Source of the DNA: Candidatus Poribacteria bacterium
Lineage (GTDB): Bacteria; Poribacteria; WGA-4E; WGA-3G
NCBI GenBank assembly: GCA_965205015.1
Contig: OZ242029.1
Coordinates: 4,704,001-4,768,000 of the forward strand
Direction: 5' to 3'
DNA length: 64,000 bases
The notes under the pieces were generated by a model. That model was given only the letters and a program-made list of their open reading frames with translations, was not told where the DNA came from and did no database searches. Made by a program: the position numbers and the translations under genes. Shown piece after piece: positions 18,128 to 26,131 of this stretch (the stretch's first letter is position 1; every line of letters starts with the position of its first letter).

Positions 18128-18242
18128 CAGTCTACTGTCGGTTACACGTTGTGGCGGTTGCGAAAGTTCTGTCTGCTACAAAGAGATATTGACTGACCGC
18201 TGACTGCCGATGGCTGATTGCCACAAAAAATGGAGGCAGAAA

Positions 18243-19262
18243 ATGGCAACTCAAACCCCCTTAAGCAAAATTGAACCCGGCATGAAAGTTACGGCACAGA
18301 TGTCGCCGGAACCGAGCGCAGCAGATTTGCAGCTTGCCAAGCAGATGGACGTCGAATATGTCGTCCTCTGGACAAACGGGGAAAATGCAAATTACGACTA
18401 TTTTATGAGCCGTCGCGAGATCTTCGAGAACGCAGGACTCAAAATCTACGGGTTCGGCAACAGCGATGTCCACAATCAGGACGGGATTGTGCTGAACTTA
18501 GAGAACCGCGACGCGAAGATCGAACAGTATAAAAGGTACATCCGCGATCTCGGTAGAGCAGGGATTCCGTATACAACCTATGCGCACATGGGCAACGGTA
18601 TCTGGAGCACCGAACGTGAGACGACCCGTGGTGGTTCAAGCGCACGGGCATTTAACCTCGATGCCGCACAGGAAGGACATTGGGGCGGCAAACTGTACCC
18701 AATGCCGCTCTCTCATGGACGCGAATTCAGTGAAGATGAACTCTGGGACAATTATACCTATTTCATTAAACAAGCCGCACCCGTAGCGGAGGAAGCAGGC
18801 GTGATGATCGGTATCCACCCCGACGACCCACCCGCGGTGCATCTTGCTGGAATCCCGAGATGTATCTTCAGCAGTTTTGAAGGCTATAAACGTGCCCTTG
18901 AAATCGCCGATAGCCCGAATGTCGGTATGTGTTTCTGCGTGGGATGCTGGCTGGAGGGCGGCGAATTAATGGGCAAAGATGTCATTGAATCCATCCGCTA
19001 CTTCGGCGAACGGAACAAAATCTTCAAAGTCCATTTCCGCAATGTCGATCAACCGCTTCCGCATTTCGTTGAGACCTTCGTTGACAACGGCTATCAGGAT
19101 ATGTACCAGGTCGCAAAAGTTCTCCGAGAGGTCAACTTCAACGGTGTGCTGATCCCCGATCATATTCCACAAATGGGCGATGACGGTCGCGTCGGCACAG
19201 CATATACGATCGCCTACATGAATGCACTCGTGAAACGAGCGAATGAGGAGGTCGCCGCGTGA
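18243..19262 (+). CDS. Mannonate dehydratase (UxuA) family protein
   Basis: LWDNYTYFIK, IHPDDPP, VHFRNV, IPDHIP; GGAGG RBS before ATG 18243. Confidence 0.8.
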   Translation: MATQTPLSKIEPGMKVTAQMSPEPSAADLQLAKQMDVEYVVLWTNGENANYDYFMSRREIFENAGLKIYGFGNSDVHNQDGIVLNLENRDAKIEQYKRYIRDLGRAGIPYTTYAHMGNGIWSTERETTRGGSSARAFNLDAAQEGHWGGKLYPMPLSHGREFSEDELWDNYTYFIKQAAPVAEEAGVMIGIHPDDPPAVHLAGIPRCIFSSFEGYKRALEIADSPNVGMCFCVGCWLEGGELMGKDVIESIRYFGERNKIFKVHFRNVDQPLPHFVETFVDNGYQDMYQVAKVLREVNFNGVLIPDHIPQMGDDGRVGTAYTIAYMNALVKRANEEVAA

Positions 19263-20581
19263 GGACATCGGCGCGAGTCTTATTATTATTCCTAAGCCTG
19301 CCGCTAACCGTGTTGGCGGATTGGAGCGATTTTCTCGGTCCAGCACGAAACGGCAAATCGCAAGAGAAGATAGAGATCGCGCCATGGAGAAACACAGGTC
19401 CGCCGGTCGTCTGGCACAAGAAGATCGGTACCAGCTACGGGGCACCCACCATTGCAGCCGGACGTTTGTTTATCTTCGCGCGTCACGGCGATATGGCGCG
19501 TCTCACCTGTATGGAAAGCGATACCGGTACGGAGCTTTGGCGATTTGAATATCCGACAGACTACGAAGATATGTACGGATACAACAATGGACCGCGGTCC
19601 TCCCCTGTCGCTGATGGAGAACGGGTCTATATCTTCGGGGTTCAGGGAAAGTTGCACTGTCTGAACGTTTCGGACGGAACCCTGTTATGGAAGGTGGATA
19701 CGGCAGCCCGTTACAATGTCGTTCAAAACTTCTTCGGAACGGCTTCAACACCGATTGTTGAAGGGGATCTACTCATCGCGCAAATTGGCGGTTCCCCACC
19801 GGGCACCCCGAAAAATATCTGGGCATCAAACGGTAACCCGCCATCAAACGGCACTGGTATCGTCGGATTCAACAAACACACAGGAGAAGTGGTTTACGAA
19901 ATCAGTGACGAATTAGCGAGTTACGCCAGCCCCATCACGGCAACAATTGATGGACGCCGTTGGGGATTCATGTTCGCTCGCGGTGGACTCGTCGGTTTTG
20001 AACCGACAACCGGCACGCTCGACTTCTACTACCCGTGGCGTTGCCCGAAGATTGAATCCGTTAATGCCTCAAGTCCAGTTGTTGCAGACGATCTCGTCTT
20101 CATCAGTGAATCCTACGAGGTCGGCAGTTCCGTCCTCCGAGTGTATCCCGGCGGCTACAAGGTTGTTTGGAAAGATTCACCACGCCGCCGAGACCAATCC
20201 CTGCGGCTGCACTGGAATACCGCCATCCACCACGAGGGGTATCTCTACGCCTGTAGCAACAGGCACGCCAGCGGTGCGGAACTTCGGTGTGTAGAACTCA
20301 AAACAGGTAAAGTCGTGTGGGGACAACGCGTTGATGAACGTGCATCTTTACTTTGGGTGAATGACTATTTCATCTTTCTCGGTGAATACGGACGGTTGAT
20401 GCTCCTCAAATGCACTCCTGAAAAGATGGAGATCATTTCTGAAGCAGCTCCGAGAGACGAAAACGGAAGACAATTTATAGAATATCCGGCATGGTCGGCA
20501 CCTGCCTTGTCAAATGGACTGTTATACGTTCGAGGCAAAGACAGGTTAGTCTGTTTTGCACTCACCGTCCCAAAAGATTAA
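19259..20581 (+). CDS. PQQ-binding-like beta-propeller repeat protein, secreted
   Basis: DWSDFLGPARNG, GPRSSP, ASYASP, WSAPALSNGLLYVR. Confidence 0.85.
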   Translation: MRTSARVLLLFLSLPLTVLADWSDFLGPARNGKSQEKIEIAPWRNTGPPVVWHKKIGTSYGAPTIAAGRLFIFARHGDMARLTCMESDTGTELWRFEYPTDYEDMYGYNNGPRSSPVADGERVYIFGVQGKLHCLNVSDGTLLWKVDTAARYNVVQNFFGTASTPIVEGDLLIAQIGGSPPGTPKNIWASNGNPPSNGTGIVGFNKHTGEVVYEISDELASYASPITATIDGRRWGFMFARGGLVGFEPTTGTLDFYYPWRCPKIESVNASSPVVADDLVFISESYEVGSSVLRVYPGGYKVVWKDSPRRRDQSLRLHWNTAIHHEGYLYACSNRHASGAELRCVELKTGKVVWGQRVDERASLLWVNDYFIFLGEYGRLMLLKCTPEKMEIISEAAPRDENGRQFIEYPAWSAPALSNGLLYVRGKDRLVCFALTVPKD

Positions 20582-20597
20582 GAACCTTGTCCTTTTA

Positions 20598-21686
20598 CTA
20601 AGGTTTCCACAATGTTGCCTCAATGAACCGCTCACCGTCGGGTTCCTCATCAAAATAGTAGGCGGTCACTATAGTTCCATCAGGACGTTGAATCGTGCGG
20701 GGATACCCGATATCGTGATCCCCACCGTTATCGCGCAAAACGATCTCTTCACCCCACGTCTCACCCGCATCACTGCTCAGCTTCGCACATATCCGATGCG
20801 GAGCATCCCGGTACCCGTAAATGAGGCAGAGTCGTCCGTCGTGAAGATGGGTTAGCGTTGGTGGGTTTCCACCGCGTCCTGTATTCTCTACAGGTCGGTT
20901 CATGTAATTCCAAGTGTGTCCGTTATCATCTGAGGCGTAGAGGTCAATCCAGTTCTGCCGTTCTTCCCAGTCAGAATTCGTATTACCACTGCCGCCGCGG
21001 CACCGAACCGCCACCAAAATCTTTGAATCCGATAGCCGAACACTCGCCGGCATAATTGCGAACCCTTCTGGCTCCGGTCCGATCTGAGACAGCAATGAAA
21101 AGGATTCACCCCCATCGGTTGTCTGTGCACAGAATATTAAGCCCTCCTCACCATCTGACTTCGATGCGGTAAGGAACAGCAGGCACTCGTCTGGACTTGA
21201 GACCAGATAATCTGTCCGAGCCGCGATACCGGTGTAGTCAAACATCGGAAGCCGAAACGGTCCCTTCCAACGCTGGCATCGGTCGCAAGAGGTGTAAAAC
21301 CACGAGTAGGCTCCCGCTCTCAACCCAGACCTGCTGCACATCATCGCAAAATCAGGATGTGTAAAATCCACACGCGGCGGCGTCTCAAAAGCAGCCTCAA
21401 CTGTCAGCCGATGCCGTTCTTCCACGTGTTCATCCGCAGAGAGTGTGCCTCTTGCGGGTAAACGGCACGGCGTTTCCGAGACGTTCCATGTCTCACCCCC
21501 ATCAAAACTTCGTGCCTGCATTCCCAGAAACGGCTTATCCCGGTCGCGGCGATGGAATCCCGCATCCGATTTGTGATACCCAACCGTAAATCCGACAACG
21601 ATCTCGTTGTCCCATGCCCAAATACCGTAATTCGCCGGCCAACCTGCGTATCGCCCCGGCTCTCGATAGATTGTAACCTGTCGCAT
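20598..21686 (-). CDS. Sialidase-fold / BNR (Asp-box) repeat protein
   Basis: Asp boxes SFDGGETW, TTDGGESF, SDDNGHTW, SSDAGETW; DIGYP. Confidence 0.8.
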   Translation of the reverse strand: MRQVTIYREPGRYAGWPANYGIWAWDNEIVVGFTVGYHKSDAGFHRRDRDKPFLGMQARSFDGGETWNVSETPCRLPARGTLSADEHVEERHRLTVEAAFETPPRVDFTHPDFAMMCSRSGLRAGAYSWFYTSCDRCQRWKGPFRLPMFDYTGIAARTDYLVSSPDECLLFLTASKSDGEEGLIFCAQTTDGGESFSLLSQIGPEPEGFAIMPASVRLSDSKILVAVRCRGGSGNTNSDWEERQNWIDLYASDDNGHTWNYMNRPVENTGRGGNPPTLTHLHDGRLCLIYGYRDAPHRICAKLSSDAGETWGEEIVLRDNGGDHDIGYPRTIQRPDGTIVTAYYFDEEPDGERFIEATLWKP

Positions 21687-21878
21687 CGTGCCTCAATTCC
21701 CCCATCTTCCTAATATAGATTTGAAAAATATCTGTCAAAGAATTCATAGACAAGTATAGCACCGATACGTCTTTTTCTGTATGGAAAATTTGACTTTTTT
21801 CCGCACTTCTGCTAAAATATTTCCCGAGTGACAAACTGGGAATTTTAAAACAGCGAGCGGCAGTTGAGAGGGAAATCT

Positions 21879-22316
21879 ATGGAAAATCAGGAAGCTCGGT
21901 CTGCCCTATTCACTGTCCGAGATGCTGAAGATGCTTTGGTTCGGTTCACCCTTACCTTGTTCGCAATACTGGTTGGAATTTTTCTGCACGAGATTCTGAT
22001 AGAGAGTCAAGCGTGGAACGATGCAGTGTATAAGATGTTAAGGAGTAAACCGCATGTGTTGGCATGGGCAACAGGTTTAACGATATCCTTGGAGGGAGGT
22101 GTTATTATGTTTTCACGTCTTCAAGATTATAGAGATAGGCGGAAAAGACGGTTCGATGCGGCGAAAGCCGAAGGCAAAGCTGAAGGCAAAGCCGAGATTT
22201 ACCAAGAAATAGCCGAATGGAACAATCGCCGCCTTGCCGCAGAGGCACGGAATGAACCCTTCACTGAACCGTTCCCGTCTCCCCCAGAACCCCCAACAAA
22301 CGCCCAGATGGATTAG
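21879..22316 (+). CDS. Small membrane protein with KAEG repeats and proline-rich tail
   Basis: One or two hydrophobic helices, then AKAEGKAEGKAE and EPFTEPFPSPP; GAGGG RBS before ATG 21879. Confidence 0.7.
   Translation: MENQEARSALFTVRDAEDALVRFTLTLFAILVGIFLHEILIESQAWNDAVYKMLRSKPHVLAWATGLTISLEGGVIMFSRLQDYRDRRKRRFDAAKAEGKAEGKAEIYQEIAEWNNRRLAAEARNEPFTEPFPSPPEPPTNAQMD
22107..22316 (+). CDS. Putative nested in-frame 69-aa small protein from an internal start
   Basis: GGAGGT at 22095-22100, 6-nt spacer, in-frame ATG 22107. Confidence 0.5.
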   Translation: MFSRLQDYRDRRKRRFDAAKAEGKAEGKAEIYQEIAEWNNRRLAAEARNEPFTEPFPSPPEPPTNAQMD

Positions 22317-22325
22317 GGATGTCCA

Positions 22326-23492
22326 ATGCGAAACTATTTGACAATTGTAATTATTCTCTATCTCTGTTCGTCATTGTCTGGAATCGCTGACGAGACCCCT
22401 GGGGACCACAGCACCTACGTCCAACACGTAGAACAAGCCTTCATCCTCATGTTTCAAGGCGATAATCTCCGAGCTATCTCCGAGTTTGAAGCGGCGCTCG
22501 CCATTGAACCCAATCATCCTGAAGTGCTGCACTACCTTGGCATGGCACATGCCCAAGAGGAATTCTGGAACAAAGCCGCCGAAAGTTGTCAAGGCTCCTT
22601 AGCACTGATGCCCGACAACATCGAAGCCCTCTACTCACTCGGTGTTGCCTACTTCAGACTTGATCGATGGGAAGACGCAGGGTCAACACTCCAACGGGTT
22701 ATAGAACTTTCACCGCAACACGCGCGCGGGTATGAAATGCTTGGTAAATCACTCGTAAAACTCCGTCGGTACGCCGAAGCCGTTCCGATCTTGAGGAAGG
22801 CACTTACACTGACACCACACGCCGCAGGTCTCTATTATGAACTCGGCACAGCACACCTCAATCTAAAAGCATACCCTGAAGCGATAGAGAATTTCAAACT
22901 GGCGATAACGCACGGTCCAACGGGTTATGCTGAGCCACACCACGGGCTCGGCACGGCGTATTTTCGATCAGGCGATCGGGAGAAAAGCAGAGCAGAAATG
23001 CAAATCTATCAGCACCTACAAAAGGAATTCGCTGAATACGAACGTCTCACCCGTCTCACGCGAGCGGAGCCGAATAACCTTGAGGCATGGACGGAATTAG
23101 CCACACTCCTCATGAATCAAAAAAACTTTGCCAAGGCAATCTCCGTCTTTCAGAAATGCATTGAACTTGCCCCCAATAACGCCAACTTTTACCATGGACT
23201 GAGCCGTGCCTTCATGAGTCTCAACTATCCGAAGCACGCCGCGGAAGCCGCCAGAAAAGCCGTGCAACTCATGCCGAACCAAGCGATACTCTACAACACC
23301 CTCGGTAGCACCTACGCGATGCAAGGCGAATCGCAAAAGGCACTGCGTGCGTTCCGAAAAGCGATCGAACTCGACGGCGACGAACCCTACTACCACCTCA
23401 ATCTTTCAAGACTCTATCAGGGCATCGGCAACCAAAAACTCGCGCAGGAGCATTATCGCGTCTATGAATATCTTTTGTCCAAACAGAAATAA
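22326..23492 (+). CDS. Tetratricopeptide repeat protein (signal peptide)
   Basis: Many 34-aa TPR units such as ALYSLGVAYFRLDRWEDA and LYNTLGSTYAMQGESQKA. Confidence 0.9.
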   Translation: MRNYLTIVIILYLCSSLSGIADETPGDHSTYVQHVEQAFILMFQGDNLRAISEFEAALAIEPNHPEVLHYLGMAHAQEEFWNKAAESCQGSLALMPDNIEALYSLGVAYFRLDRWEDAGSTLQRVIELSPQHARGYEMLGKSLVKLRRYAEAVPILRKALTLTPHAAGLYYELGTAHLNLKAYPEAIENFKLAITHGPTGYAEPHHGLGTAYFRSGDREKSRAEMQIYQHLQKEFAEYERLTRLTRAEPNNLEAWTELATLLMNQKNFAKAISVFQKCIELAPNNANFYHGLSRAFMSLNYPKHAAEAARKAVQLMPNQAILYNTLGSTYAMQGESQKALRAFRKAIELDGDEPYYHLNLSRLYQGIGNQKLAQEHYRVYEYLLSKQK

Positions 23493-24324
23493 CCATTTCC
23501 GCATCGTTGCAGAAGGTCTGTTTCTCGTGCTCCTCAGCGTTGGTCTGAATTTCGGGGCATCCGCACAAGACACCGAGCATCTCATATTGATCTCTGCAGG
23601 CACCTTTACAATGGGAAGCGACACTCGCGCCGCCGATGAAAAACCGATGCACAAAGTCTATCTCGATGCCTATTACATCAGCAAATATGAGGTAACGAAT
23701 GCCGAGTACTATGAATTTTGGAAACAGCAATTAGAGACGGCGTCTCCAGGCAAAACACCCCGACACACCCCAGAAAACTTCACACATCTCCCGCAGATCG
23801 GCGATTGGCCTGCACGGGCGAAACAGTTCCCGAATCATCCGGTCGTCGGTGTGTCGTGGCACGATGCCACTGCTTACGCAGCGTGGAAAGGCATGCGACT
23901 TCCGACAGAGGCGGAATGGGAGAAAGCGGCGCGTGGCTACACCAACAGAACATGGCCCTGGGGCAATGCACTCGAACCCTACGCGAACACCGCTGCGAAC
24001 GATGATGGTTATGAGAACCGCCTCGCGCCTGTCGGCAGTTTCCCGAAAGGCAAAAGCTACTACGGCGCAATGGATATGGCGGGCAACGTCTGGGAATGGA
24101 CAGCGGATTGGTACAGCGATGTCTACTATTGGTACACTTCACAAGCCGCTACAAAACGTCCGAAGCAAAATCCAACGGGACCGGCGGTGGGTAGTTGGCG
24201 GGTCATCCGTGGGGGTTCATGGATGGATACCATCGCCCGATGCAGCACGACCTTTCGGTTTTATCTCTATCCGAATCTAAAAACCTCTTTTGTCGGTTTC
24301 CGATTGGCAAAAACCGCTTTTTAA
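23464..24324 (+). CDS. Formylglycine-generating-enzyme (SUMF1/FGE-sulfatase) domain protein
   Basis: FTMGS, YEVTN, HPVVGVSW, RLPTEAEWEKAARG, DMAGNVWEW, RGGSW, GFR; start chosen at ATG before a signal-like segment. Confidence 0.85.
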   Translation: MNIFCPNRNNHFRIVAEGLFLVLLSVGLNFGASAQDTEHLILISAGTFTMGSDTRAADEKPMHKVYLDAYYISKYEVTNAEYYEFWKQQLETASPGKTPRHTPENFTHLPQIGDWPARAKQFPNHPVVGVSWHDATAYAAWKGMRLPTEAEWEKAARGYTNRTWPWGNALEPYANTAANDDGYENRLAPVGSFPKGKSYYGAMDMAGNVWEWTADWYSDVYYWYTSQAATKRPKQNPTGPAVGSWRVIRGGSWMDTIARCSTTFRFYLYPNLKTSFVGFRLAKTAF

Positions 24325-24427
24325 TTTTACCTTGCGGCGGAACGACGCGGTTTGGAACTTTGACGGGCTTTTCTCTGGCGTCGCCTGCGTGTTTTTGCTT
24401 GGGTGTTTCTGCGTATTGTTGCAGGCT
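24318..24427 (+). repeat. Dispersed 110-bp intergenic element
   Basis: TTTTTAATTTTACCTTGCGGCG...CGCCTGCGTGTTTTTG...TTTCTGCGTATTGTTGCAGGCT shared with 32340-32448. Confidence 0.8.
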
Positions 24428-24454
24428 GCTGACTGCTGATTACTGACGAATGCA

Positions 24455-26131
24455 ATGCCAAAATCTACTATAATGTCCCTCTCACAGCCCCATCGCCATT
24501 TAAAATCGTTATTACACGTCCTCCTATTCCTTCTGCTAACCGCAGGCAACACTGCTTCACAATCCCCTATTTTCACGGATGTCACCGAAGAAGCAGGCAT
24601 CCACTTCAAACATAACAAGGGGACAACCGAACACAAGCATATCATTGAGACAATGGGTTCCGGGACAGTCTTCTTCGATTACGACACCGATGGTGATCCC
24701 GATCTGTATTTCGTTAACAGTGGGAGCGTTCCTCAAGAGACCCCACAAACGCTTGGGAATGTCCTATATCGAAACGAAGGCGATGGACGTTTCACGGATG
24801 TCACCGAAATCTCAGGAATAGGGGACACAGGATACGGAATGGCGGCATCTGCGGGGGATATCGACAATGACGGCGATCCCGACCTCTATGTCGCCAACTT
24901 CGGGCAAGATAAACTCTACCGAAACAACGGCGACGGCACCTTTACCGACATCACCGAAGTCGCCGGTATTGATAATACGCTCTGGAGTATCGCCGCTGTT
25001 TACTTCGATTTCGACGTGGATGGCGACCTGGACATCTTCGTCGTCAACTATCTGGTGTACGAATTGTCAATGCCGATATCCACCTACAAAGGCATTGTCG
25101 GTTACGGGCACCCGCGTAGCTACAAAGGCACACCCGATGTGCTCTACCGAAACAATGGGGACGGCACCTTCACAAACATTGCCGAGAAGGCAGGCGTGAC
25201 AAATCCGGTCGAAGGACGAGGTATGGCAGCGGTTGCTTGGGACTACGACCAAGACGGATTTCCGGATATCTACGTCGCCAACGACACCAACAGAAATTTT
25301 CTATACCATAACAACGGCGACGGCACCTTCACGGATGAAAGCATCTTCATCGGTGTCGGTTACGATGACAGAGGTGTCGCTGAAGGGTCTATGGGGATAG
25401 ATTGTGCAGACTACAACGGTGATGGATGGTTCGATCTGATCGTCGCGAATTCCGAGAAGGCGACCCTCTATAAGAACGAGGAGGGACTCTTCTTCACAGA
25501 TACCACCGCAGACAGTGGATTGGAACAACCGACACTCCCGTTTGTTGGCTTCAGTCCGCTCTTTCTGGATTACGATCACGACGGACACCTCGACATGTTC
25601 TGTGCAAACGGACACCCACAAGACATAATTGAGATATTAGCGGACAATGAAACCTATGCCCAACGCGACCAGCTCTTTCAAAACAACGGCGACGGCACTT
25701 ATACCGATGTCTCTGCATCCGCCGGCGCTTACTTTTCCGAACCACTTGTTGGTAGAGCCGCCGCGACCGCCGACTACGACAACGACGGGGATCCCGATAT
25801 TGTCATCATGAATTCCAATCAGCGCGCAGTGCTGCTTCGGAACGATGGTGGGAACTTGAAAAATTGGCTGAGCCTTAAACTGGTCGGGACGCACAGCAAT
25901 CGCGACGGGATCGGTGCGAAGGTCACGGTCGCGGCAGGAGACCTGACGCAGATACGGGAAGTGAAGAGCGGTTCAAGCTACGCCTCAGGCAGCGATACAC
26001 GCCTGCTGTTCGGTTTGGGAGAAAATCAAGATGTTGAGAAAGTAAGCATCGTCTGGCAAAGCGGGACCCCACAAGAATTGCGAGATGTCTCCATCAACCA
26101 GATTCTAACAATCGTAGAATCGGAAAGATAG
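24455..26131 (+). CDS. CRTAC1-family FG-GAP repeat protein with C-terminal ASPIC/UnbV domain
   Basis: Repeated DYDxDGDxDL and LYRNNGDGTFTD; SNRDGIGAKV, GSSYAS, LLFGLG. Confidence 0.9.
   Translation: MPKSTIMSLSQPHRHLKSLLHVLLFLLLTAGNTASQSPIFTDVTEEAGIHFKHNKGTTEHKHIIETMGSGTVFFDYDTDGDPDLYFVNSGSVPQETPQTLGNVLYRNEGDGRFTDVTEISGIGDTGYGMAASAGDIDNDGDPDLYVANFGQDKLYRNNGDGTFTDITEVAGIDNTLWSIAAVYFDFDVDGDLDIFVVNYLVYELSMPISTYKGIVGYGHPRSYKGTPDVLYRNNGDGTFTNIAEKAGVTNPVEGRGMAAVAWDYDQDGFPDIYVANDTNRNFLYHNNGDGTFTDESIFIGVGYDDRGVAEGSMGIDCADYNGDGWFDLIVANSEKATLYKNEEGLFFTDTTADSGLEQPTLPFVGFSPLFLDYDHDGHLDMFCANGHPQDIIEILADNETYAQRDQLFQNNGDGTYTDVSASAGAYFSEPLVGRAAATADYDNDGDPDIVIMNSNQRAVLLRNDGGNLKNWLSLKLVGTHSNRDGIGAKVTVAAGDLTQIREVKSGSSYASGSDTRLLFGLGENQDVEKVSIVWQSGTPQELRDVSINQILTIVESER

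Follow-up and report, generated by a model that had tools for sequence, protein, structure and literature searches.

The closest described precedent for the gene reported here is the rpn family. According to the portions of Zhong et al. (2023; PMC10400941) drawn on here, an internal ribosome-binding site (RBS) and start codon within rpn genes give rise to a small C-terminal protein, RpnS, which dimerizes through a long helix with four-residue repeats starting 8–20 residues after its Met. The same portions describe RpnS as hypervariable, with a repeat number that varies within species and a mismatch that abolishes neutralisation, report small homologues (RpnSs) encoded 3′ of some rpn genes, and carry the authors' proposal that many more genes-within-genes await discovery. 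We analyzed a stretch of 64,000 nucleotides (hereafter the window) from a Candidatus Poribacteria bacterium (GenBank assembly GCA_965205015.1, contig OZ242029.1, positions 4,704,001 to 4,768,000 of the forward strand), in which a gene for a small, putative membrane protein carries a second candidate start within its own reading frame. This gene of a sponge-symbiont bacterium probably yields two products, the shorter one soluble. The best overall explanation, to which we assign a probability of about 0.5, is that of a gene-within-gene whose short isoform restrains or tunes the membrane isoform. The parts of the gene, in window positions, are as follows.

21790 to 21818, forward strand: promoter-like site (TTGACT, 17-nt spacer, TAAAAT, with TG before the second hexamer), 60 nt 5′ of the gene start.
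21879 to 22316, forward strand: full-length gene (ATG at 21879, TAG at 22314–22316) for the proposed long isoform of 145 amino acids (aa; P0001).
22091 to 22100, forward strand: internal Shine–Dalgarno (SD)-like element GGAGGGAGGT within the L-E-G-G codons, with a pairing of −13.3 kcal/mol.
22107 to 22316, forward strand: nested open reading frame (ORF) for the proposed short soluble isoform of 69 aa (P0002), from Met77 to the common stop.
22164 to 22195, forward strand: 12-bp tandem repeat encoding KAEGKAEGKAE (Tandem Repeats Finder).
22200 to 22295, forward strand: the best conserved segment of the family, YQEIAEWNNRRLAAEARNEPFTEPFPSPPEPP, with the invariant residues W114, R117, A121, F128, E130 and P133.

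The long isoform would consist, in order, of an FTVRD motif, two hydrophobic helices (residues ~22–41 and 59–78), a basic juxtamembrane stretch, a repeat helix, a conserved motif and a Pro-rich tail, and its homologues begin at the same MENQ or MENT. By the positive-inside rule (RDRRKRR after helix 2), both ends should lie in the cytoplasm. The element GGAGGGAGGT is followed after 6 nt (GTTATT) by the in-frame ATG at 22107–22109, which is codon 77; the residues before Met77 are LEGGVI, the internal SD there includes GGAGGGAGG, and the nested product begins MFSRLQDYRDRRKRRFDAAKAEGKAEGKAE. The tandem repeat has a period of 12, 2.7 copies and 90% matches, and the four-residue repeat tract begins at about residue 19–20 of the nested product. 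A sequence-only reading of the window had pointed out both the SD-like element 6 nt before the ATG and the 69-aa nested product with its repeat, and each was confirmed. It had also described the N-terminal half as hydrophobic helices rather than a nuclease, which agrees with the lack of any Pfam or NCBIfam match and with an AlphaFold2 (AF2) model that has two long helices. The promoter-like site 5′ of the gene (10 of 12 matches) is a candidate only, because one site was found in a 900-nt region where shuffles give 0.9. Within the gene itself a simple scan for promoters gave no candidate, no Rfam match lies in 21000–23000, and the window holds no stand-alone short copy of the family.

SD pairing was calculated between the 20 nt before a start and a generic anti-SD sequence (ACCUCCUUU, not taken from the 16S rRNA of this genome). 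It amounted to −13.3 kcal/mol at the internal ATG and −6.3 kcal/mol at the gene's own start, in line with the sequence-only reading, which had judged the internal RBS to be the better one. None of the 39 first-ATG gene starts and none of the 340 internal ATGs in the window reached −13.3 kcal/mol, the lowest internal value being −9.8. A pairing of −7.5 kcal/mol was reached by 31% of the first-ATG starts and 3.5% of the internal ATGs, and SD-led initiation is therefore in use in this genome. The internal SD and ATG are real, but by themselves prove nothing; since a single GGAGG-N3-9-ATG is not beyond chance in the window, the weight of the case rests on comparative evidence.

Relatives of the protein numbered 59 in a word-indexed search and 237 clusters at E ≤ 0.001 in an exhaustive one. 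In species-representative genomes we found 78 loci, with up to 6 per genome, distributed over Candidatus or uncultured Poribacteria (54), Dehalococcoidia/Tepidiformaceae (17) and entries named 'uncultured bacterium' (7). An alignment of 49 members (A1) contains the N-terminal FTVRD motif, two hydrophobic helices, a basic stretch, variable repeats and a conserved C-terminal part, and it is in these 49 sequences that the six columns listed above are invariant. The C-terminal motif, of the form W-x2-RR-x2-A-x2-R-x-E-x-FTEP-x-P, is the best conserved part of the protein across two phyla. A strict regular expression for this motif missed many members, and a local phmmer classification was used instead. 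Neither the window protein nor its nested product had a match above threshold in Pfam (best E 0.14), NCBIfam, PADLOC or PHROGs; a sequence search of the PDB and a Foldseek search with the AF2 model gave no meaningful match, tblastn gave none in 50,697 phage records or in plasmid records, and neighbours in the ESM Atlas were unnamed clusters only. No longer proteins (255–2000 aa) with the family's C-terminal half were found, which is weak evidence, and P0184 (2259 aa, 26 matched stretches) was recognized as an unrelated repetitive protein and removed from the counts.

Conservation of GGAGG and ATG among homologues, a check that the sequence-only reading had proposed, was assessed at the boundary ATG, that is, the ATG aligned with Met77, where helix 2 passes into the charged region, by scoring the preceding 20 nt. 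Pairing of −9 kcal/mol or stronger was found in 36 of 52 full-length relatives, compared with 2.6% of 2260 internal in-frame ATGs from neighbouring ORFs; counting unique upstream 20-mers, 65% of 43 reached this value. Two genes (L011 and L075) had been left out of the 52 as suspect and in a third (L037) the wrong site had been picked; read by hand, these gave −11.5, −6.4 and −11.5 kcal/mol, respectively. All five full-length Chloroflexota-type genes with Val at the Met77 position encode it by GTG, with GGGAG(G/A) or GGGAGGAG 3–6 nt upstream. With the three hand-corrected sites and the five GTG sites included, 42 of 59 full-length genes carry the start signal. The amino acids that the GGAGG-type element encodes differ widely (LEGG, IEEG, FEEA, (V/I)GGI, EIGR, WEV, MEA, AEGGD and VEGVV), and the element occurs in all three codon phases, for example as TTG GAG GGA GGT (LEGG), ATT GAG GAG GGG (IEEG), GGA GGC (GG), GGG AGG (GR), TGG GAG GTA (WEV) and ATG GAG GCA (MEA). 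When the seven upstream codons were resampled synonymously, the mean pairing was −6.82 kcal/mol compared with −9.28 observed, and none of 300 resampled sets was as low. Six orthologues share GGAGGGAGGT unchanged, with differences among them at synonymous sites nearby. On these comparative grounds, the family carries an internal start signal.

The short unit also occurs on its own. Among 204 public family proteins, 87 have both halves, 61 the C-terminal half only (C-half; 52 of them ≤100 aa), 14 the N-terminal half only (N-half) and 24 a C-half after a diverged N-terminal part, the other 18 falling outside these classes. Many of the short proteins start with MFSR, MFQR, MFTR, MLLSD or MVLA, which is the boundary Met. 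At a locus 3′ of a nitroreductase gene, five species (L011, L013, L014, L017 and L018) have the full gene and four (L029, L031, L033 and L034) the short ORF alone, the deletions in the latter ending at differing points 0–21 nt before the ATG. L023, L043 and L045 have a TGA instead of the Gly codon at the fourth position before the Met. P0045 and P0050 each represent one half as a protein of its own, probably from a single contig, since the longest contig given for either entry is 22,497 nt. Tandem arrays, in which one to four short copies follow a full gene, were found in L008, L036, L070, L061, L054, L057 and L009, several of them in chromosome-scale assemblies. GGAGG is kept in the stand-alone copies of L029, L030, L036 (twice), L046, L053 and L059, and the second copy of L009 has AAGGAGGT 6 nt before its Met.

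The ratio of nonsynonymous to synonymous substitution rates (dN/dS) in stand-alone short ORFs was 0.06–0.22 in the nitroreductase set, 0.05–0.20 in the MLLSD set and mostly 0.07–0.17 in a third set. Within full genes it was 0.05–0.15 for the C-half and 0.19–0.33 for the N-half, so that the short ORFs are as constrained as the C-half of full genes, at dS up to ~1. Judged by these ratios, the stand-alone short genes are under purifying selection and not decaying.

The repeat units differ within the family (AEGK, AEGR, AEGI, GEAR and LEQG) and the tract is very variable in length, from about 1 to >20 copies. Six orthologues differ in length solely by 12- or 36-bp indels in this tract, and within arrays the start and the conserved Trp are separated by distances that vary in multiples of four residues (57/41/45 aa in L008, 52/52/68 in L036, 77/65 in L009 and 44/40 in L057), a step-of-four variation that is evident from the alignments. 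With alignment A1, AF2 predicted a helical hairpin (residues 13–55 and 57–123) with an extended tail, at a mean pLDDT of 75.7 and ~91–92 for residues 111–130. Two copies of residues 77–145 with the same alignment gave a dimer score of 0.49, compared with 0.00 for the best of three controls; this mark was reached by 20 of 30 same-chain-pair structures and 1 of 23 single-chain structures, counts that hold only roughly because our own alignment was used. Contact agreement between runs was at least 87% and the partner pLDDT (model confidence) at least 77. The predicted interface is parallel and in register over residues 95–115, of which 95–108 belong to the repeat tract, and residues 132–138 of the tail touch the other chain at residue 115. 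The C-half is thus predicted to form a parallel dimer via its repeats.

We propose the following mechanism. The long isoform would be a small protein of the inner membrane that has two helices and cytoplasmic N- and C-termini, helix 2 running on into a cytoplasmic helix of AEGK-type repeats capped by the conserved motif and the Pro-rich tail. The SD and ATG in the last codons of membrane helix 2 would allow separate translation of the soluble, cytoplasmic half. As both isoforms carry the same repeat helix, for which a parallel in-register dimer is predicted, the short one should be able to pair with the long one, and the number of repeats would set which short and long partners match. By analogy with RpnL and RpnS, the short isoform may then act as a dominant-negative, antitoxin-like partner of the membrane isoform. 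Regulation of the long form by such mixed dimers stands, in our estimate, at even odds, while a toxin–antitoxin or abortive-infection function, argued by analogy, appears rather unlikely. We infer that the isoforms might interact in the cell, that the long form could be harmful and that a role in phage defence is conceivable. The Rpn-like interpretation that the sequence-only reading had offered thus stands in its structural half, the nested internal start with four-residue repeats, which is strongly supported by the conserved SD with ATG or GTG, the selected stand-alone and split ORFs, the tandem copies, the 12-bp steps and the predicted dimer; its other half, a membrane toxin/antitoxin or antiphage module, is an analogy.

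Several observations count against two products. In the window, GGAGG-N3-9-ATG is not enriched (16 occurrences, a count reached in 25 of 100 shuffles, compared with 13.55 expected). Pairing is weaker than −9 kcal/mol in 16 of the 52 full-length relatives, some of which have no SD (L051 at −4.0 and the second copy of L056 at −5.7), GGAGG lies 11–14 nt before the ATG, beyond the usual optimum, in two large subfamilies, and no SD precedes the stand-alone short ORFs of L033, L034, L045, L064 and L065. Because the family members are related, the counts do not represent independent events; the boundary-Met picker mis-assigned three sites, and a hydrophobicity-based boundary locator, which failed for about 10 genes because helix 2 is only weakly hydrophobic, was not used for the counts. 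In addition, four pairs with L049 gave dN/dS of 0.33–0.60, and part of the dN/dS divergence may predate the deletions. The lack of enrichment, the weak, absent or distant SDs and the conserved Glu and Gly at the end of helix 2 would fit a membrane protein with one product, its GGAGG a by-product of those residues or a pause site aiding membrane insertion and the short ORFs decaying fragments. This we consider quite improbable, as the pairing exceeds what the residues require, the motif is retained even where the residues differ, and in each of the three codon phases, Val is always GTG at the boundary, and the short ORFs are intact, selected at appreciable dS, found in chromosome-scale assemblies and begin at the same codon after differing deletions. 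Almost no credence can be given to a prophage lysis-control gene of the holin/antiholin type, from which two products would also be made. The window protein has the general build of a holin, being small, with a pair of membrane helices and a highly charged C-terminal tail, and its gene has two candidate in-frame starts. In known holins, however, only a few codons separate the two starts, so that each product is a membrane protein, whereas the window gene lies among BNR, TPR, FGE-sulfatase and PQQ genes with no endolysin nearby and no phage context, the several paralogous loci of a genome are found among metabolic genes, and neither PHROGs nor the phage records gave a match.

If two isoforms are made, they could also serve a housekeeping regulator with no toxin–antitoxin role, the long form tethering a conserved cytoplasmic partner to the membrane, the soluble form competing or setting stoichiometry and extra short copies adjusting dosage; we regard this as possible though doubtful. 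Across two phyla, no part of the protein is as well conserved as the C-terminal motif. This suggests a conserved partner in the cell and not an arms race, and differs from the hypervariability of RpnS described in the portions of PMC10400941 cited above. The housekeeping-type neighbours of the window gene are kept in order in four syntenic orthologues (L001, L002, L003 and L005), and PADLOC gave no defence-family match. These points, the lack of matches in PHROGs and in phage and plasmid records, and the 14 public proteins that consist of the N-half alone speak against a toxin or defence function. A housekeeping regulator would fit the conserved motif, the stable neighbourhood and the lack of defence-family matches, as well as the lower dN/dS of the C-half and the joining of the N-terminal domain to other tails (P0100, P0101, P0109 and L063). 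Its partner, however, is only postulated, and the neighbours differ between subfamilies, so that there is no conserved operon partner. Up to 6 loci per genome, the hypervariable repeat number, the repeated loss of the membrane half with the short ORF kept, and methylase, Uma2, Rpn-like or transposase neighbours at about one-third of loci (by hand tally) better fit a selfish or conflict-driven module. The window gene might be the founding example of a second class of one-gene toxin with an intragenic antitoxin, in which the long form would be a dimer-dependent membrane-damaging or abortive-infection effector restrained by the soluble short form and the orphan and tandem short genes would provide immunity; this is unlikely. 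If true, repeat number would be a specificity code, the immunity would be directed against paralogous or incoming long forms, the module would have passed between Poribacteria and Chloroflexota, and the layout of the rpn genes would be a general, portable design and not a peculiarity of one nuclease family.

The window neighbourhood contains the following features.

18210 to 26131: PQQ-like beta-propeller, BNR/sialidase-like, TPR, FGE-sulfatase and FG-GAP/ASPIC genes.
22326 to 23492: gene for a 388-aa TPR protein with a signal-peptide-like N-terminus, starting 10 nt after the stop of the family gene.

Because of this close spacing the family gene and the TPR gene are probably co-transcribed, and no terminator-like site was found between them. 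TPR genes recur within ~1 kb downstream in other subfamilies, which may reflect the abundance of TPR genes in these genomes. The TPR neighbour was set aside as a binding partner, since its start is signal-peptide-like whereas the C-half is taken to be cytoplasmic. Elsewhere the neighbours vary by subfamily and are mostly metabolic; Pfam and PADLOC scans covered representatives of recurrent clusters among 446 neighbouring ORFs. At 26 of 78 loci, a methylase, Uma2, Rpn-like or transposase gene lies within 3 kb as a neighbour of the restriction-modification or mobile-element type, a hand tally for which there is no baseline.

Among these neighbours, an N6/N4 DNA methylase, which matches PADLOC Type II/III methyltransferase models, adjoins the MFYRIRL and MFQRIRD subfamilies (L022, L023, L043, L045, L047, L050, L058, L063, L064 and L068). 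It lies within 3 kb in 10 loci, and the family gene is 16–65 nt upstream of it in seven; in several methylase loci the membrane half is broken or absent and the short ORF intact. Up to five Uma2 paralogues form arrays 3′ of the MLLSDWY subfamily (L039 4455–8269, L046 and L038), and in L055 (3968–4849) a 293-aa Uma2-family (PD-(D/E)XK) protein ends in the C-terminal motif of the window family, flanked by a short copy and a full copy with the same tail. In L036 (3953–7367), a full gene and two short copies with unlike repeat numbers are followed by a DDE transposase (DDE_Tnp_1_3, E 3.7e-14). A 134-aa protein directly 3′ of a full-length family gene in L060 (4154–4558) and L076 (4106–4510) has a short-form-like start (MVLAERLED..., with a degenerate motif) followed by DUF2283 (Pfam E 3.4e-11).

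An interleaved tandem array with a period of ~1.45–1.5 kb occupies 3974–7868 of L008, in the order full gene, 377-aa gene, short copy, 317-aa gene, short copy and, last, a 119-aa fragment that corresponds to the C-terminal part of the 317-aa gene. The protein of 317 aa (AF2 pLDDT 87.7) has weak Foldseek matches to PD-(D/E)XK folds of the restriction-endonuclease type (best E 0.024) and a sub-threshold match to the Rpn model TIGR01784 (E 0.0099), and its family appears to be an Rpn-like one that has gone unrecognised and that has a stand-alone small copy of its own. P0144 (192 aa) joins a short form of the window family to the C-terminal domain of this L008 family (BLASTP 2e-13 over 138 columns), which may reflect either a genuine fusion or read-through from one gene into the next. 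As to the N-terminal membrane domain, the tails to which it is joined in P0100, P0101, P0109 and L063 (3163–3855) are quite different from that of the window protein and include EEKEQF-type repeats and an unrelated 150-aa domain. The ...EEG(I/L)xLMF... junction and its Met are kept in these proteins, and the junction may be a general swap point.

Returning to the gene-within-gene reading, in which the short isoform restrains or tunes the membrane isoform, three described systems and one unnamed family invite comparison. The phage lambda gene for S105 and S107 is a small membrane protein gene with two in-frame starts and two products, one of which restrains the other; only two codons separate these starts, and each product is a membrane protein. 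The window gene resembles it as a small membrane protein gene with two candidate in-frame starts, but here the starts are 76 codons apart, the short product would lack both hydrophobic helices and there is no phage context. FliH and YscL have helices of GxxxG/AxxxG repeats, and the window family shares with them runs of four-residue repeats with Gly or Ala at every fourth position in a long helix involved in dimerisation; it has no homology to them beyond the repeats and belongs to another cellular system. NCBIfam FliH models also match weakly to the repeat tract of the Rpn-like neighbour. The unnamed PD-(D/E)XK-like family of the 317-aa protein, present in L008 and L038, has the same type of repeat (IEQG/LQQG), length classes that step by ~4 aa and, in L008, a truncated C-terminal copy. 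With 843 public relatives and no member in the window, it is a separate family, differing in its nuclease-like N-terminal domain with invariant D48, E65 and Q67.

The likeness is closest to the Rpn L/S pairs, as far as the cited portions of their description extend. Both have an internal RBS and start for a small C-terminal protein (judged in our case from sequence), four-residue repeats of variable number within 20 residues of the internal start in a dimerising helix (here predicted), and stand-alone small genes 3′ of some full genes, and in both the genes are multi-copy. Unlike the Rpn proteins (TIGR01784/YhgA-like), the window family has a two-helix membrane hairpin and no PD-(D/E)XK nuclease as its N-terminal domain, and in place of the three-helix bundle of RpnS the AF2 model has one helix to residue 123 and a Pro-rich tail with an almost invariant motif. 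In a profile comparison of the window family with the Rpn-like family only the repeats aligned, at a probability of 8.5%. Lacking the nuclease domain and the three-helix S fold, the window gene is Rpn-like in layout and not a member of the Rpn family. A literature search that left most subscription journals outside its reach turned up no description of the Rpn arrangement on a membrane protein. For the Rpn nucleases, control of the long product by a short one from within the same gene has been demonstrated (PMC10400941, in the portions cited). The window family would be a clear second case with the same hallmarks on a quite different effector, a membrane hairpin. It would offer a rule for finding such modules (an SD and start conserved across codon phases, together with stand-alone downstream halves) and a concrete hypothesis for at least 237 clusters of unannotated small proteins.

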